A stretch of DNA of 40,865 nt from a virus, in UHGV virus genome UHGV-0180691. One strand, written 5' to 3'. Numbering within the stretch: position 1 is the first letter of the stretch; every line of letters starts with the position of its first letter. The translations under genes and the position numbers were made by a program. Shown here piece after piece: positions 5,778-15,603 of the stretch. A model generated the notes under the pieces. That model ran no database searches and was not told the DNA's origin. It saw only the letters and a program-made list of their open reading frames with translations.

Positions 5778-6473
5778 TTATCCGTGCCGTTTAACTGACT
5801 GCGACTGGCTGATCATTACCTTGCCGAAAACGTAAAATCTGTCTTCATTGGACTTATCCACTGACCACTCCCGATATTTAGGGTTATCGGAAATGACAAG
5901 AATTTTATCTGGGATCATCTGTAATCTTTTGACGTAAATTTTATCATCAAAACCAAAGACATAAATCCCATCACCATCAAACTCATTAATCGAAATATCA
6001 ACGAATATCAAATCACCTGGTTCAATGGTATCAGCCATGCTGTCACCACGAACGTTAATCACTTTGACCGTATCTGGTGTTCTCCCACCAAATAATGCGG
6101 CGGCTCTTTCGTTGTTGTACTCAATGGACCTGATGACATCGACGACATCACTACCTTGTATATGGCCCATGCCAGCACTGGCGCTGACATCGAGCAACTC
6201 GACTCTAAACACAGGGTCACCCTCTCCATAAGCTGGATTTTTACCACTGGATTTACATACAGTATTTTCATTTGGAGATGGTGTAAAGAGTTCTGCCACG
6301 CTGACACCAAGTGCCGTAGCATATTTGCTAAGCGATTGTTCAGTAAATGACTTTTGTTTTCCAGTCTCAACCCGTGAGACGTTCGCACCGTCAATACCTA
6401 CAGCTTCAGCAAGATCTGAAATTTTCATGCCCTTTTCGAGGCGTAATTCTCTAATGCGGTTTCCTATGTTCAT
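5778..6473 (-). CDS. cI: CI-like prophage repressor (N-terminal HTH, C-terminal LexA/S24-like autopeptidase domain)
   Basis: 231 aa; N-terminal HTH (IRELRLEKGMKISDLAEAVGIDGANVSRVETG); C-terminal domain with GDSM and VKRL context typical of S24 Ser/Lys dyad; divergent from cro-like gene. Confidence 0.9.
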   Translation of the reverse strand: MNIGNRIRELRLEKGMKISDLAEAVGIDGANVSRVETGKQKSFTEQSLSKYATALGVSVAELFTPSPNENTVCKSSGKNPAYGEGDPVFRVELLDVSASAGMGHIQGSDVVDVIRSIEYNNERAAALFGGRTPDTVKVINVRGDSMADTIEPGDLIFVDISINEFDGDGIYVFGFDDKIYVKRLQMIPDKILVISDNPKYREWSVDKSNEDRFYVFGKVMISQSQSVKRHG

Positions 6474-6570: not shown

Positions 6571-6834
6571 ATGCAATCACCGTTAAGAAATTTGCGAAAA
6601 TCGCAAGGTTTGACTCTCTCTCATGTGGCAAACGTGGTGGACATTGATCCAGCCAACCTAAGCCGAATTGAAAGGGGTCAACAAATCGCATCACTCGATG
6701 TAGCTGAAAGGCTTGTGAAGTTTTATTCGGGCCAAATTGATGAGCTCCAAATCTTGTACCCGCACCGTTATACGCAGGCTACAGAAACTGGGGAAGCAAC
6801 GGTACCACAGGAAAAAGGGGAAAGCCGTGGGTAA
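6571..6834 (+). CDS. cro: Cro-like HTH transcriptional regulator
   Basis: 87 aa; HTH (LRKSQGLTLSHVANVVDIDPANLSRIERG); divergent from cI; RBS AGGGGG upstream. Confidence 0.8.
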   Translation: MQSPLRNLRKSQGLTLSHVANVVDIDPANLSRIERGQQIASLDVAERLVKFYSGQIDELQILYPHRYTQATETGEATVPQEKGESRG

Positions 6835-7375
6835 CGAACCGGAATGGAAAGTTGATAAGCAGCCAGCCTGGCTGGTGGCCGCAATCAAAAAAACAATCAC
6901 CGAACTGCCGGGCGGATATTCAGAAGCTGCTGAGTGGTTGGGTGTGACCGAGAACGCGCTGTTTAACCGGCTGCGTACCGATGGTGATCAGATCTTCCCG
7001 CTCGGTTGGGCGATGGTGCTTCAGCGTGCTGGTGGTTCAAACCACATCGCGAACGCTATTGCACGTCACTCGAACGGTGTTTTTGTGCCATTGGCTGATG
7101 TTGAAGAGATTGAGAACGGCGATATCAACCAGCGTCTCATGGAGTCAGTTGAGTGGATCGGCAGGCATTCGCAATACGTTCGTAAAGCTACCGCTGACGG
7201 CGTTATTGATGCTCAGGAACGCGCCCAGATCGAAGAGAACAGCTATCAGGTGATGGCTAAGTGGCAGGAACATTTGACGCTGCTTTTCCGTGTGTTTTGC
7301 GCGCCGGAAAAGAGTGACGCCCGCGAGTGTGCAGCTCCGGGCGTCGTGGCAGACAAATCTTGTATGGAGAAGTAA
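6827..7375 (+). CDS. putative CII-like/YdaT-like early regulatory protein
   Basis: Start moved to GTG at 6827 (RBS GGGGAAAG upstream; overlaps cro stop); position immediately after cro; family assignment tentative. Confidence 0.4.
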   Translation: MGNEPEWKVDKQPAWLVAAIKKTITELPGGYSEAAEWLGVTENALFNRLRTDGDQIFPLGWAMVLQRAGGSNHIANAIARHSNGVFVPLADVEEIENGDINQRLMESVEWIGRHSQYVRKATADGVIDAQERAQIEENSYQVMAKWQEHLTLLFRVFCAPEKSDARECAAPGVVADKSCMEK

Positions 7376-7380
7376 TCCGC

Positions 7381-7707
7381 ATGACCAGTTTAACGGCTTT
7401 TAACCGTTTACCGCAACTGAGGATGATCCCGGTACCGGGCGCTCCGTTGTTTCGGTATGAACGCAGAATAGCAAACCGCTGGGTGCCATGTAACCACAGT
7501 CGGGCGGTCGCAATTGTGGGGGTTTACTACAGGAAGGCGAAACGCTTATGCGCGAAGTTAACCGAAGGTTCAAAGACCACAGAGGGATCCCCGTTCGGGT
7601 TATCCGGTGGGAGCCAGAGACTCAACGAGTTATCTACCTGCGGGATGGTTATAACCACGAATGTTTCAGCCCGCTCGAACAATTCAAGCGCAAGTTTACA
7701 GAGTTAA
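7381..7707 (+). CDS. hypothetical early protein
   Basis: ATG at 7381 with GGAG 10 nt upstream; 109 aa; between cII-like and replication genes. Confidence 0.35.
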   Translation: MTSLTAFNRLPQLRMIPVPGAPLFRYERRIANRWVPCNHSRAVAIVGVYYRKAKRLCAKLTEGSKTTEGSPFGLSGGSQRLNELSTCGMVITTNVSARSNNSSASLQS

Positions 7708-7716
7708 AGGACGACC

Positions 7717-8571
7717 ATGAGCACTAAATTAACGGGTTACGTTTGGGACGCTTGTGCCGCTTCTGGCATGAAGCTGTCCAGCGTTGCCATCATGGCGCGT
7801 CTGGCAGACTTCAGCAGTGATGAAGGGGTTAGCTGGCCTTCCATCGCTACCATCGCGCGCCAGATTGGTGCCGGTGAGAGCACGGTTCGCACAGCCATAT
7901 CTCAACTGGAAAAAGACGGGTGGTTAACCCGCCAGCAGCGCCGTAAAGGCAACCGCAATGCATCGAACGTTTACCAGCTCAATGTTGCGAAATTACAGGC
8001 TGCTGCTTTTTCTCACCTGTCAGATTCTGACGCATCAAATTCTGATGCCTCAAAAACCGACGCGTCAAAATCTGAGGCATCAAAAAACGATGAAAAAGGC
8101 GGTTTTCACCCGTCAGAATCTGGGGGGGATCCGTCAGTAAATACAACTACTGATCCATCAGTTAAAAAACCTTTTTGTCCGGTTGCGCCGCAACCAGACC
8201 CTGAAGTGATGATTACCGATAACGCCATCCTGGTTCTGAATCATCTGAACCTGGTTAGCGGCTCACGATACCAAAAATCAAAAACTTCTCTGGAAAACAT
8301 CCGTGCTCGCTTGCGCGAAGGTTACACCGTTGGTGACTTACAACTGGTGATTGACCTTAAGCATGAGCACTGGAACGGCAATGACGTGCAGTACCAGTAC
8401 ATGCGCCCTGAAACGCTATTTGGCCCGAAAAAGTTCGAGGGTTATCTGCAAAGCGGGATCCGTTGGGACAAGAAGGGGCGTCCACCACGTGAAAGCTGGG
8501 GTGAAAAGAAACACGATCCGATGAAGTTCGGTCCGGTTGATACCAAGATTCCAGAGGGGTTCAGAGGATGA
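7717..8571 (+). CDS. replication initiation protein (O-like, N-terminal winged-HTH; conserved phage C-terminal domain)
   Basis: 284 aa; position after cro/cII; internal low-complexity linker encoded by direct repeats (iteron-like) as in lambda O; RBS AAAGGA upstream. Confidence 0.65.
   Translation: MSTKLTGYVWDACAASGMKLSSVAIMARLADFSSDEGVSWPSIATIARQIGAGESTVRTAISQLEKDGWLTRQQRRKGNRNASNVYQLNVAKLQAAAFSHLSDSDASNSDASKTDASKSEASKNDEKGGFHPSESGGDPSVNTTTDPSVKKPFCPVAPQPDPEVMITDNAILVLNHLNLVSGSRYQKSKTSLENIRARLREGYTVGDLQLVIDLKHEHWNGNDVQYQYMRPETLFGPKKFEGYLQSGIRWDKKGRPPRESWGEKKHDPMKFGPVDTKIPEGFRG
8026..8088. repeat. four direct repeats with 15-bp periodicity (core GAYGCNTCAAAA), iteron-like, inside the replication gene
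   Basis: Cores start at 8029, 8044, 8059, 8074; followed by an A-rich stretch; encode the SDASNSDASKTDASKSEASKND linker. Confidence 0.5.
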
Positions 8572-9455
8572 CGGAAAATAAATACTGCCGCGCACTGGCT
8601 GAACTCCGTTCAAAACCAGCGCATGAATTGAAAGAAGTTGGCGATCAGTGGCGAACTCCAGATCTACTTTTTTGGGGCATCAATTCGATATTTGGCCCGA
8701 TGGCTCTGGATCTGTTTGCAGATGATAGCAATGCAAAATGCCCTGCATGGTATACCGCCGAAGATAACGCGTTGACGCAGGACTGGTCAGAACGTCTGGC
8801 AGAACTCGGTGGCGCCGCGTTTGCTAACCCGCCATACAGCCGTTCTCAGTACCATGAAAAGCAGGCCATCACTGGCATGACTCACATCATGAATCACACA
8901 ATGGCTATGCGTGATAAAGGTGGTCGTTACATATACCTCGTGAAGTCAGCCACAAGTGAAACATGGTGGCCGGAGGATGCCGATCACATCATGTTTATTC
9001 GTGGTCGTATTGGGTTTGATCTTCCTGTTTGGTTTGTTCCCGCTGACGAGAGGCAGCAACCCACCAGCGCATTTTTTGCCGGGGCAATAGCTGTTTTCGA
9101 CAAAACCTGGCGTGGTGAAAGCTTCAGCTATATCAATCGCACCGAACTGGAAGAAAAAGGGCGTGCAGCATTGTCATTGGCTCAATTCGCCGCGGCAAAA
9201 ATGGCCCTTCCTTCGGTGCCGGAAAAAGCAATGCCTACTCCAATTGCAACACCTGATGCAGAGTCGCGCATCTGGCCTCTTGAGGTTGGACTGGTGTTTA
9301 ACCAAATTGAAGGGGCTGACGCTCTACCTGTTTCACAGCAGAACAAGCTGAAAGCCAATATCAACCAGCTGTGGCTCGAACGTATGCCTACGAGTGAAAT
9401 TATCACGACCGCTGGTGGTCTCTTCAACAGCATGCAGGGGGCCGTCAATGCGTGA
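8568..9455 (+). CDS. DNA N6-adenine methyltransferase (phage Dam-like)
   Basis: 295 aa; motifs DLFADDSN and FANPPYS (NPPY catalytic motif); stop overlaps start of the next methyltransferase gene. Confidence 0.7.
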   Translation: MTENKYCRALAELRSKPAHELKEVGDQWRTPDLLFWGINSIFGPMALDLFADDSNAKCPAWYTAEDNALTQDWSERLAELGGAAFANPPYSRSQYHEKQAITGMTHIMNHTMAMRDKGGRYIYLVKSATSETWWPEDADHIMFIRGRIGFDLPVWFVPADERQQPTSAFFAGAIAVFDKTWRGESFSYINRTELEEKGRAALSLAQFAAAKMALPSVPEKAMPTPIATPDAESRIWPLEVGLVFNQIEGADALPVSQQNKLKANINQLWLERMPTSEIITTAGGLFNSMQGAVNA

Positions 9456-11385
9456 AATCATCGTTGATAACTTTGCCGGTGGTGGCGGCGCGAGTACCGG
9501 CATTGAACTGGCCATCGGGCGTAGCGTGGATATCGCTATCAACCACGACGAAAACGCTATTGCGATGCATAAGACGAATCACCCAGACACGCTGCATTAT
9601 TGCGAGTCGGTGTTTGACGTTGACCCAAGCGCAGCCACCAGCGGTAAACCTGTCGGCCTGGCCTGGTTTAGCCCTGACTGCCGCCACTTTTCCAAAGCGA
9701 AGGGCGCTAAGCCAGTTAAGAAAGAGATTCGCGGGCTGGCGTGGATTGTTCTGCGCTGGGCGCTGGCAGTACGTCCCCGAGTCATGATGCTGGAGAACGT
9801 CGAAGAATTTAAGACATGGGGCCCGCTGCTGGATGAAGAATTACGCCCGGATCCTGAGCGTGCTGGTGAAACATTCGAGGCATTTGTCGGCATGCTGTCG
9901 ACTGGTATCGCTGCGAATCACCCAGCACTGGCTGAGGTTTGCGAATTTCTTGCCATTGAGCCGCACGGCAAGCAGGCGCAACAGCTGATCGCCGGGCTTG
10001 GCTATGAGGTCGATTATCGTGAACTGCGCGCTTGTGACTATGGCGCGCCGACGATCAGAAAGCGTTTCTTCATGGTCATGCGTTGTGACGGCCGCAAGAT
10101 TCATTGGCCTGAAGCGACTCATGGGGATCCAAAATCACTGGAAGTACAAAGCGGCAAGCTGGCGCCATGGCGTACCGCGGCGGAGTGCATTGACTGGAAT
10201 ATCCCGGCCCGGTCCATCTTCGACCGCAAAAAGCCGCTGGCGGAAAATACGCTCAAACGTATCGCGCGCGGCATCCAGCGTTTCGTTATCGAGAGTGCTT
10301 CGCCGTTTATCGTTAAGTGCAACCACACCACGTCACACGGCAAATATGATTGTTTCCGTGGGCAGGAGCTCGAGGCTCCATTACAAACCATCACGAAAAC
10401 CCACGGCTATGCGCTGGCGGTACCGCATCTTACTAAATTCCGCACCGGGGCCACCGGGCAGCCAGTGACCGAGCCGGTTCCAACTGTCACCGCTGGTACG
10501 TCGGCGCGCCCGGGCGGGAATGGACATGCGCTTGGCGTAGTTGAGGCCGCCCTGACACCGTTCCTGGCTGGCAATGGCGGCAGTGAGTACCAGGCAAAGC
10601 CGCGCCCGCTGGATAAACCCGCTCATACAATCCTCAAGCAGTCCCACGCGTGCGTGGTTGCGCCGGTCATCGCCCGCCAGTTTGGCGCCAGTGTTGGGCA
10701 CAGGGCTGACGAACCGAGCGCGACGATTACTGCAGGTGGTGGCGGTAAGTCGCAGCTGGTAACTCCAACATTGATCCAGATGGGGTACGGCGAACGCCCA
10801 GGACAAGAACCGCGTGTTCTTCAACTGAATAACCCGCTCGGCACGGTCACTGCTGGTGGTAATAAGTTTGCAACGGTGAGCGCGTTCCTGGCGAAGCACT
10901 ATGGTGGGAATTACACGGGGCCGGGTGTTGGTATGGATGAGCCTGCCCATTCAGTCACTACTGTTGATCATCACGCGGTAGTTGCGTCGCACCTGGTGAA
11001 GCTGCGCGGAACCTGCCGCGACGGTCAGACCATGGATACACCTATGCCGACGATTACCGCTGGTGGCCAGCATGTTGGCGAGGTCCGGACATTCCTCGAA
11101 ACATACTGCGGTGATAGCGAGGATGAATGGCTGGTGACGATCGAGGGGGTTAAGTACCAGATCGTCGATATCGGAATGCGCATGCTGCAACCGCATGAGC
11201 TTTATAAGGCGCAGGGCTTCCCTGACGGCTACGTTATCGATCAGGACTATCGCGGCAATCGTTACGCCAAAGACAAGCAGGTAGCGCGCTGCGGTAACGC
11301 AGTACCGCCGCCGTTCGCTCGTGCTCTGGTAGAAGCAAATCTTCCTGAATTATGTGCAAATCAAAAGGCGGGTGCAGCCGCCTGA
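9448..11385 (+). CDS. DNA cytosine-5 methyltransferase with extended repeat-containing variable region
   Basis: Start at ATG 9448 (MREIIVDNFAGGGGASTG = motif I); SPDCRHFS (catalytic Cys motif IV), MLENVEEF (ENV motif VI), C-terminal LQGFP and GNAVPPPFARAL (motifs IX/X); about 360-aa region between motifs VIII and IX with repeated T(V/I)TAGG modules. Confidence 0.85.
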   Translation: MREIIVDNFAGGGGASTGIELAIGRSVDIAINHDENAIAMHKTNHPDTLHYCESVFDVDPSAATSGKPVGLAWFSPDCRHFSKAKGAKPVKKEIRGLAWIVLRWALAVRPRVMMLENVEEFKTWGPLLDEELRPDPERAGETFEAFVGMLSTGIAANHPALAEVCEFLAIEPHGKQAQQLIAGLGYEVDYRELRACDYGAPTIRKRFFMVMRCDGRKIHWPEATHGDPKSLEVQSGKLAPWRTAAECIDWNIPARSIFDRKKPLAENTLKRIARGIQRFVIESASPFIVKCNHTTSHGKYDCFRGQELEAPLQTITKTHGYALAVPHLTKFRTGATGQPVTEPVPTVTAGTSARPGGNGHALGVVEAALTPFLAGNGGSEYQAKPRPLDKPAHTILKQSHACVVAPVIARQFGASVGHRADEPSATITAGGGGKSQLVTPTLIQMGYGERPGQEPRVLQLNNPLGTVTAGGNKFATVSAFLAKHYGGNYTGPGVGMDEPAHSVTTVDHHAVVASHLVKLRGTCRDGQTMDTPMPTITAGGQHVGEVRTFLETYCGDSEDEWLVTIEGVKYQIVDIGMRMLQPHELYKAQGFPDGYVIDQDYRGNRYAKDKQVARCGNAVPPPFARALVEANLPELCANQKAGAAA

Positions 11386-14550: not shown

Positions 14551-15603
14551 ATGAAAAATACTGTAAATATAAACAGTGTTGAGCTTATCAACGCTGACTG
14601 CCTGCAATACCTAGCAACCCTCCCAGATAACACCATCGACCTTATTGTTACGGATCCGCCTTATTTTAAGGTGAAGCCGAACGGCTGGGATAATCAGTGG
14701 AACGGTGACGCCGACTATCTTCGCTGGCTTGATATGTGTCTTGCCCAGTTCTGGCGAGTGCTTAAGCCTGCCGGCAGCCTGTATTTGTTTTCAGGTCACC
14801 GACTTGCATCCGATATTGAGATCATGATGCGTGAACGCTTCAACGTCATGAACCACATTATCTGGGCGAAGCCATCAGGGCGCTGGAACGGGTGTAATAA
14901 AGAAAGCCTGCGCTCTTACTTTCCCGCGACGGAACGCATCCTTTTCGCTGAGCATTATCAGGGGCCATATAAGCCGAAAAGCGACGGGTTTGCTGAGAAA
15001 AGCAACGAGGTCAAACAGCACGTCATGGCTCCGTTAATCACCTACTTTCGGGATGCACGAGCCGAACTGGGGGTCACGTCCAGGCAAATAGCTGACGCCA
15101 CCGGAAAGAAAAATATGGTGTCTCACTGGTTCGGTGCCAGTCAGTGGCAACTACCGAACGAGCAGGATTACGAAAAGCTGCAGGAATTGTTCACTCAGAT
15201 CGCCATTGAGAAGCACCGCGCCTCAGAACTCAAAGCACCGCATCACCAGCTGGTGGCCACATGGCATTCGTTGAACCGGAAATACCTTGATCTGCTGGAA
15301 GAGTACAAATCTCTTCGGCGGCATTTCTCTGTGACAGTAGCCGTGCCCTATACAGACGTCTGGACACATAAACCCGTCCAGTTCTATCCAGGCAAACACC
15401 CGTGCGAAAAGCCCGCTGATATGTTGCGGCAAATCATCAACGCCAGCAGCAGGCCCGGCGATGTGGTAGCTGATTTCTTTATGGGCTCGGGATCAACTGT
15501 TAAAGCAGCCATTGAACTGGGCCGCCAGGCTATCGGCGTAGAACTGGAAGAGGAACGTTTCAACCAGACGGTAAGTGAGGTGAGGCAGCTGGCAGGGGAA
15601 TAA
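14551..15603 (+). CDS. DNA methyltransferase, N6-adenine/N4-cytosine class (beta-type, DPPY motif)
   Basis: 350 aa; VTDPPYF (motif IV) near N-terminus and FFMGSGST (motif I, AdoMet binding) near C-terminus, the order typical of beta-class amino-methyltransferases. Confidence 0.8.
   Translation: MKNTVNINSVELINADCLQYLATLPDNTIDLIVTDPPYFKVKPNGWDNQWNGDADYLRWLDMCLAQFWRVLKPAGSLYLFSGHRLASDIEIMMRERFNVMNHIIWAKPSGRWNGCNKESLRSYFPATERILFAEHYQGPYKPKSDGFAEKSNEVKQHVMAPLITYFRDARAELGVTSRQIADATGKKNMVSHWFGASQWQLPNEQDYEKLQELFTQIAIEKHRASELKAPHHQLVATWHSLNRKYLDLLEEYKSLRRHFSVTVAVPYTDVWTHKPVQFYPGKHPCEKPADMLRQIINASSRPGDVVADFFMGSGSTVKAAIELGRQAIGVELEEERFNQTVSEVRQLAGE

Follow-up and report, generated by a model that had tools for sequence, protein, structure and literature searches.

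We propose, with a probability of about 0.8, that the segment at 8017–8176 is a phage replication origin built on the lambda plan and located in the linker-coding part of the gene for its own initiator. The window, i.e., the whole 40,865-nt stretch of DNA that was analysed, is a lambdoid prophage, with the gene order given in Table 1, and the 15-bp repeats inside the segment are most likely the binding sites of the initiator itself at a lambda-style origin, as far as sequence comparisons can indicate. In the proposed mechanism, the N-terminal winged-helix domain of the initiator, probably as a dimer, would bind a partly palindromic 10–11-bp core (YCARAWTCTGR), which recurs every 15 bp across 8017–8091 and once more at 8113. 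The resulting nucleoprotein complex, together with transcription from the early rightward operon, would destabilise the adjacent AT-rich tract at 8137–8176, and the Phg_2220_C domain would then recruit host replication proteins, including the helicase. Recruitment of host proteins is suggested because P-, DnaC- and DnaB-like genes are absent from the early operon, with none between the initiator gene and Q. The first-pass annotation had proposed a candidate origin with DNA-level initiator repeats, and every test that we ran, all of them computational, favours it. Searches of the available literature returned no published origin, binding activity or replication activity for this initiator family, and in the SfIV genome paper the replication module is listed with no mention of an origin.

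The initiator gene, its repeat array and the AT-rich tract

Both domains of the initiator score above the Pfam gathering thresholds, which places the protein in the HTH_36/Phg_2220_C class of phage initiators (PHROG 11896/428). Residues 23–70 match the HTH_36 winged helix (E = 1.9e-9; 37.6 bits against a cut-off of 25), residues 173–245 match Phg_2220_C (E = 7.8e-23; 80.8 bits against a cut-off of 27), and the linker between the two domains spans approximately residues 100–165. The PHROG names of the protein are 'primosomal protein' and 'replication initiation O-like'. The description 'O-like' in the first-pass annotation is therefore apt for architecture and annotation, but not for the N-domain, as HTH_36 is a different Pfam family from that of the lambda O N-domain. 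The same domain set occurs in 2,446 homologues, and the labels that homologues carry in databases include 'conserved phage C-terminal domain-containing protein' and even 'GntR family transcriptional regulator'. Structure prediction gave no usable model (mean pLDDT 45 and pTM 0.33, from an alignment of 20 sequences that are all at least 86% identical), and a sequence search against solved structures returned marginal winged-helix regulators only (best E = 0.018).

The DUF4222 gene and the start of the initiator gene share 11 nt. In many relatives too, a DUF4222 gene is annotated beside the initiator, as seen in the plasmid-collection matches, and it may be part of the replication module. This one prophage also carries three DNA methyltransferase genes, namely the Dam-type and C-5 genes that follow the initiator gene and a gene of the N6_N4 type at 14551–15603.

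Table 1. Coordinates of the features discussed (positions of the whole window; cells are left empty where nothing was recorded)
Feature	Position	Strand	Basis or remark
Integrase	720–1883	minus	
cI-like repressor	5778–6473	minus	
cro-like gene	6571–6834		
cII-like gene	6737–7375		
DUF4222 gene	7548–7727		
O-like replication initiator gene, 284 aa	7717–8571	+	ORF list, Pfam, PHROG
N-terminal DNA-binding domain region, aa 1–100	7717–8016	+	Putative iteron reader; directly upstream of the array
Five 15-bp units, candidate iterons	8017–8091	+	Tandem-repeat and core-motif scans
Conserved block TTTTCACCCGTCAGAATCTGGGGGGGATCCGTCAGTA	8103–8139	+	Near-invariant synonymous sites, 70 loci
Isolated palindromic core site TCAGAATCTGG	8113–8123	+	Within the conserved block
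GATC-containing element GATCCGTCAGTA	8128–8139	+	Within the conserved block
AT-rich tract, candidate unwinding element	8137–8176	+	Least stable 40-mer of the gene
Module junction	8163–8199	+	Ends of homology in relatives
Dam methylase	8568–9455		Directly after the initiator gene
Cytosine methylase, 663 aa, C-5 type	9394–11385		After the Dam gene
Antirepressor, DUF968, Q, another methylase, lysozyme			Further downstream

Four repeat copies starting at 8029, 8044, 8059 and 8074 with 15-bp spacing had been reported inside the initiator gene; these start positions and the spacing are correct, and the copies lie within the initiator ORF. The reported consensus, GAYGCNTCAAAA, is exact at 8044 and 8059 and has one mismatch each at 8029 (GACGCATCAAAT) and 8074 (GAGGCATCAAAA). 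The register had to be shifted, as relatives conserve TCA-AAA-TCT-GA (core YCARAWTCTG) and not GAYGCNTCAAAA. The array as now delimited contains strong cores at 8020 (TCAGATTCTG), 8035 (TCAAATTCTG) and 8065 (TCAAAATCTG) and degenerate ones at 8050 (TCAAAAACCG) and 8080 (TCAAAAAACG), and it encodes SD-ASNSD-ASKTD-ASKSE-ASKND in the inter-domain linker. The original extent of 8026–8100 also leaves outside the isolated core copy further downstream (Table 1). In the family as a whole, the unit consensus is gCR-TCA-AAA-TCT-GAC (366 units from 72 loci), of which TCA-AAA-TCT-GA is the most informative part, followed by a 4-nt variable spacer.

The repeats stand out from the rest of the window. The two best-scoring tandem repeats found by Tandem Repeats Finder are the 15-bp array at 8026–8085 (4.0 copies, score 71) and a reading of 8029–8090 with a 30-bp period (score 89), and the repeat scan returned five copies at exact 15-nt spacing from 8005. 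When one mismatch is allowed, GAYGCNTCAAAA has nine matches in the window against 1.94 expected, and none of 100 shuffles reaches nine. The core YCARAWTCTG has six matches in 40.9 kb against an expectation of 0.87 (0/100 shuffles reach six), and all six fall within 8020–8123; the core is confined to this single place in the window. These six matches represent four sites, two of which are palindromic and were counted on both strands, the form CAGAWTCTG being a palindrome. Between 8029 and 8090, the 30-bp period fits better than the 15-bp period (84% versus 75% matches), and strong cores (…TCTGA) alternate with degenerate ones (…ACCGA, …AACGA); the functional unit may be a pair of sites.

The block downstream of the array has the consensus TTT-SAC-CCG-YCA-GAA-TCT-GGN-GGS-GAT-CCG-TCA-GTA (8103–8139; 70 loci). 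A second GATCCATCAGT repeat, at 8152, falls inside the AT-rich tract. The A-rich stretch noted directly after the array in the first-pass annotation is real but mild, and the least stable AT-rich segment of the gene is the tract further downstream, which has a dG of -45.1 kcal/mol (99.3rd percentile of the window). This tract is modest in composition (~30% GC), and many intergenic stretches of the window are less stable. Its placement recurs in the family: 53 of 60 relatives have the least stable 40-mer of the ORF starting no more than 80 nt beyond their last palindromic site. Lambda served as a control: the least stable stretch within O lies directly to the right of iteron 4, with the annotated iterons inside O, and the order of iterons followed by AT-rich DNA is the same in the window and in lambda ori. 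A conserved pair of GATC sites occurs at 8128–8131 and 8152–8155, with GAT as the Asp codon of the first element in 69 of 70 relatives, and the phage Dam methylase gene begins 400 bp downstream of the pair.

The spacing of 15 bp is off the helical repeat and tighter than that of lambda. A more elaborate account, which we regard as doubtful, makes the array a dual-coding element that supplies both a lattice of DNA sites and the linker peptide of the initiator, serving one gene product in two ways. The arrangement that would go with it, in which TCA and TGA half-sites alternate every 7–8 bp at a period off the helical repeat, shares this doubt, as the two were judged jointly. If this account were true, slippage in steps of 15 nt (3 to ~10 copies) would shift origin strength and linker length together, and the complex would be a continuous filament, unlike the wrapped O-some of lambda. 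The conserved GATC pair near the phage Dam gene might then add methylation timing.

The preferred reading of the segment as an origin also has to be weighed against DNA-level sites with another function, such as autoregulation of the initiator, sites for some other regulator of the phage or the host, or a conserved patch of homology for recombination at the module junction. Plasmid iterons often double in autoregulation and copy control, and regulatory sites would suit the conserved GATC sites of the block with a Dam methylase gene directly after. However, elsewhere in the window the motif does not coincide with any promoter or operator, and scans of the region detected no promoter- or terminator-like signal above chance, no IHF consensus, no good DnaA box and a GATC density that is ordinary for the window. 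The conserved block does adjoin the recombination junction at 8163–8199, but the array itself lies upstream of the junction and not at it, and a recombination patch has no need for a phased array of 3–10 copies followed by an AT-rich tract. We consider a role other than replication unlikely.

Constraint on the DNA and on the encoded peptide

Whether the DNA or the protein is conserved is the central question, because a period of 15 nt is also the period of a pentapeptide (x-S-K-S-D). The related sample consisted of nine phages and 78 genome loci from many Enterobacterales, with N-domains 64–100% identical to that of the window, and all of them carry the repeat in 3 to ~10 copies. Units were defined by the protein alone, as x-S-[K/E/N]-x-x, which yielded 366 units from 72 loci. 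Their codon usage differs strongly from that in the same genes outside the array. Ser2 is encoded by TCA in 80% of units versus 11% of serines in the N-domain, Ser4 by TCT in 74% versus 9% in the N-domain, Lys3 by AAA in 255/257 (99%) versus 59–64% elsewhere, and Asp5 by GAC in 78% versus ~50% elsewhere. Codon 1 varies at its first and third bases and encodes A, P, T or G. Shared ancestry was controlled for with the most distant pairs (N-domains 60–75% identical). In these pairs, the same residue has the same codon with a frequency of 0.37–0.42 in the N-domain; between non-orthologous units, the values are 0.65 for Ser2 and 0.93 for Lys3, and 0.45, i.e., background, for codon 1.

The conserved stretch does not respect codon boundaries. 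Conservation stops within a codon, with TCAAAATCTG or TCTG retained while the fifth residue is D, V, G or E, and the core persists over the peptides SKSD, SKSV, SKSG, SDSE, PDSD and PPESG. In relatives from Proteus and Trabulsiella, the core takes the form YCAGAWTCTG and encodes PDSD, RSDSD, SDSE or PPESG. In phiP27, whose N-domain is 64% identical, TTTGACCCTTCAGAWTCTGG occurs twice, 32 nt apart, once in frame 0 (FDPSDSG) and once in frame 2 (VLTLQNLDP); such a frame difference implies that two indels offset each other on either side of a DNA motif that was preserved. All core copies in genome-derived ORFs of the family are in frame 0 (271/271), and the out-of-frame evidence therefore comes from phiP27 alone. 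The phiP27 copies (NC_003356.1) lie at 1914–1970 of the extracted locus, and its initiator gene is followed by a gene for a DnaC-like loader, unlike that of the window.

Resampling of synonymous codons with the window protein held fixed gave P = 0.0014 for the observed similarity between units, and four core motifs arose in none of 20,000 such resamplings. Of the other reading frames across the linker, four are open in none of 73 relatives and the fifth is open in 33/73. The fixed codons, the changed peptides, the phiP27 frame and the closed alternative frames therefore place the constraint on the DNA, and as judged by these comparisons, the 15-bp repeats are conserved as DNA rather than as protein. 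The first-pass annotation had named related phages with the same linker peptide and no DNA periodicity as evidence against an origin; the comparison returned the opposite, with the DNA motif kept while the peptide varies. Within the family, variants of the recognition helix and variants of the core motif do not covary, both being too conserved, so the covariation argument is restricted to comparisons between families.

A repeat maintained for its peptide would be a flexible Ser/Asp/Lys-rich x-S-K-S-D linker that grew by replication slippage, with the DNA periodicity as a by-product. This is very unlikely, because codon choice is fixed far beyond the needs of the protein, conservation ends in mid-codon with TCTG kept as the fifth residue changes, the residues encoded by the spacer change freely, and phiP27 has one copy in another reading frame. 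Outside any repeat context, the isolated copy at 8113 is equally conserved at its synonymous sites, and the same consensus recurs across clades whose synonymous sites are saturated, a pattern that homogenisation within arrays cannot explain. A peptide repeat would nonetheless account for a period of exactly five codons, for copy numbers that change in steps of 15 nt as expected from slippage, and for the fact that only one family copy is out of frame; the residues S, K and D are themselves conserved, and the structure model, itself poor, predicts no secondary structure for the linker. It is highly improbable that mRNA or single-strand structure, or an overlapping gene, constrains the synonymous sites: the region as a single strand does fold far better than shuffles (z = -5.7), but a strong fold is not discriminating because arrayed palindromes fold anyway and the validated lambda ori folds even better (z = -7.8), a copy number of 3 to ~10 means that no fixed long-range fold is conserved, and an overlapping gene, to which ORFs of 55–60 aa in other frames across the array might point, was rejected on the frames closed in relatives.

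Inheritance of the module and other initiator types

The ends of homology among relatives delimit what is inherited together. Relatives with another C-terminal domain are homologous to the window up to nt 483 of the gene, and Salmonella phage 118970_sal3, which has the same C-domain and an unrelated N-domain, is homologous from nt 447. The N-domain, the array and the AT-rich tract therefore form one inherited unit. A scan of viral contigs by the array pattern alone gave at least 120 loci, and all of those listed encode the N-domain directly upstream on the same strand; in the usable genome loci, the array is likewise always accompanied by the N-domain. This co-inheritance could arise through physical adjacency alone. 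Across 191 complete ORFs, classified against reference types, at least four types of C-terminus are found fused to the N-domain and array. Single-linkage clustering of the C-termini had merged everything and was replaced by this classification. The commonest C-terminal type (SfII/KpF5) is homologous to the C-terminal domain of lambda O (E = 7e-26), and the chimeras of this type therefore carry the N-domain and array at the place that the iteron-binding domain and the iterons occupy in lambda O.

Where the N-domain is of another kind, the initiator gene has a different set of repeats, mostly palindromic, at the corresponding position. At the equivalent gene position, 118970_sal3 (KU927493.2; locus 2314–2448) has at least four direct repeats with 23-bp spacing, which are iterons at the DNA level and not a peptide repeat because 23 bp is not a multiple of three. 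The repeat is GTGCAGGAGATTCAC in the mEp460/SfV type, CCTAGTGACAAAATGTCACCA in Vibrio phage D67 and GGYGGGGCAGGAGCTGACC in SI5, and P22 gene 18 has 20-nt repeats under its annotated rep_origin, in the same place in the gene. In both E. coli phage mEp460 (locus 1810–1849; spacing of 17 and 12 nt) and Vibrio phage D67 (locus 1768–1795; spacing of 17 nt), repeated copies of the same 11-mer, AGAACCAGTCA, follow closely after the iteron-like arrays, and this 11-mer may be a second shared origin element.

Searches of genome and plasmid records returned several unusual contexts for the initiator. In E. coli CP178308.1 and CP178306.1, the initiator gene is split between loci near 1.19–1.20 Mb and 2.44–2.47 Mb. 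At one locus, the N-domain up to aa 77 is fused to an unrelated 456-aa ORF without core motifs; the distant locus holds the remainder from NRNASN, with three core motifs and an SfII-type C-domain. In their positions, the two loci resemble the K-12 cryptic prophages e14 and CPS-53. The initiator gene of these enterobacterial prophages is also present (78–91% protein identity) in contigs assigned to Vagococcus sp., Chryseobacterium sp. and Martelella alba, which look like contamination or mislabelled assemblies. The plasmid collection gave 24 matches, mostly prophages inside very large records, and no clear minimal replicon was seen among them.

Significance and comparison with known systems

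For an initiator family that is very common in enterobacterial prophages, our analysis provides a concrete candidate origin (8017–8176) together with YCARAWTCTG as a putative recognition core. It would also extend the lambda rule, by which origin and DNA-binding domain act as a single exchangeable specificity module inside the initiator gene, to an N-domain family without detectable homology to lambda O, and this extension is supported by the natural chimeras of the module with a C-domain of the lambda O type. The principle of an origin inside the initiator gene is decades old and the conceptual gain is small, and the initiator family is not lambda's own. Prophage annotation could benefit, and small replicons or origin-decoy tools are potential uses; recoding or codon optimisation of such genes calls for caution.

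In lambda, the iterons and an AT-rich tract lie in the middle of O, and the iteron copy number varies from 4 to 6 (PMC7466680). By analogy of architecture, the element in the window would work like lambda ori. As in lambda ori/O, P22 gene 18 and O of the Stx phages, the candidate origin lies in the linker of the initiator gene, flanked by a DNA-binding domain on the N-terminal side and a recruiting domain on the C-terminal side. Further likenesses to lambda are an array of partly palindromic repeats and an AT-rich tract that come in this order, 5' to 3', in both, a copy number that varies among relatives and alters the length of the linker, an N-domain that forms one specificity unit with the repeats while C-domains are swappable, and a place for the initiator gene after cro and cII within the early rightward operon.

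The differences from lambda are equally specific. The N-domain of the window protein is HTH_36 (PF13730) and not Phage_rep_O (PF04492), which lambda O and P22 gp18 match at 1e-36 to 1e-38 and the window protein does not. BLASTP against lambda O detected no N-domain homology (E = 0.55), and such homology was dropped as a candidate at an hhalign probability of 1% against the lambda and P22 N-domains. The C-domain, Phg_2220_C, has no similarity to lambda O, whereas SfII-type relatives do have a lambda-type C-domain. No P-like gene follows the initiator gene; the genes that come next encode methylases. The window has a 10–11-bp core every 15 bp, compared to lambda iterons of 18–19 bp at distances of ~20–24 bp, and its period, being divisible by three, lets the array encode a pentapeptide repeat as well.

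Other close systems are the SfII, SfIV, KpF5, phiNP, YeP1 and LLS phages and the CPS-53 and e14 cryptic prophages, which share with the window the N-domain (64–100% identical), the core of the repeat and the block downstream of it; over the whole gene, the identity of LLS, Flotzy and Eeyore to the window is 97–98%. The SfII/SfIV/KpF5 group differs from the window in that many members have another C-terminal domain and 3 to ~10 units, and the phage records of this group annotate the protein and mention no origin. A winged-helix N-domain is also common to the window protein and the DnaD-like replisome organisers of phages of Gram-positive hosts, such as SPP1 G38P and the lactococcal phage replication proteins, and in several of the latter class the origin consists of repeats inside the initiator's own gene. 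The PHROG neighbours of the window protein include a 'DnaD-like helicase loader', and its match to DnaD_N is weak (3e-5; 24.5 bits, below the Pfam cut-off of 27). The DnaD-like organisers differ from the window in their hosts and repeat sequences. In iteron plasmids (RepA, pi, TrfA), direct repeats bound by a winged-helix initiator adjoin an AT-rich unwinding element; the plasmid iterons are ~17–22 bp long, usually lie outside the rep gene and also control copy number by handcuffing.
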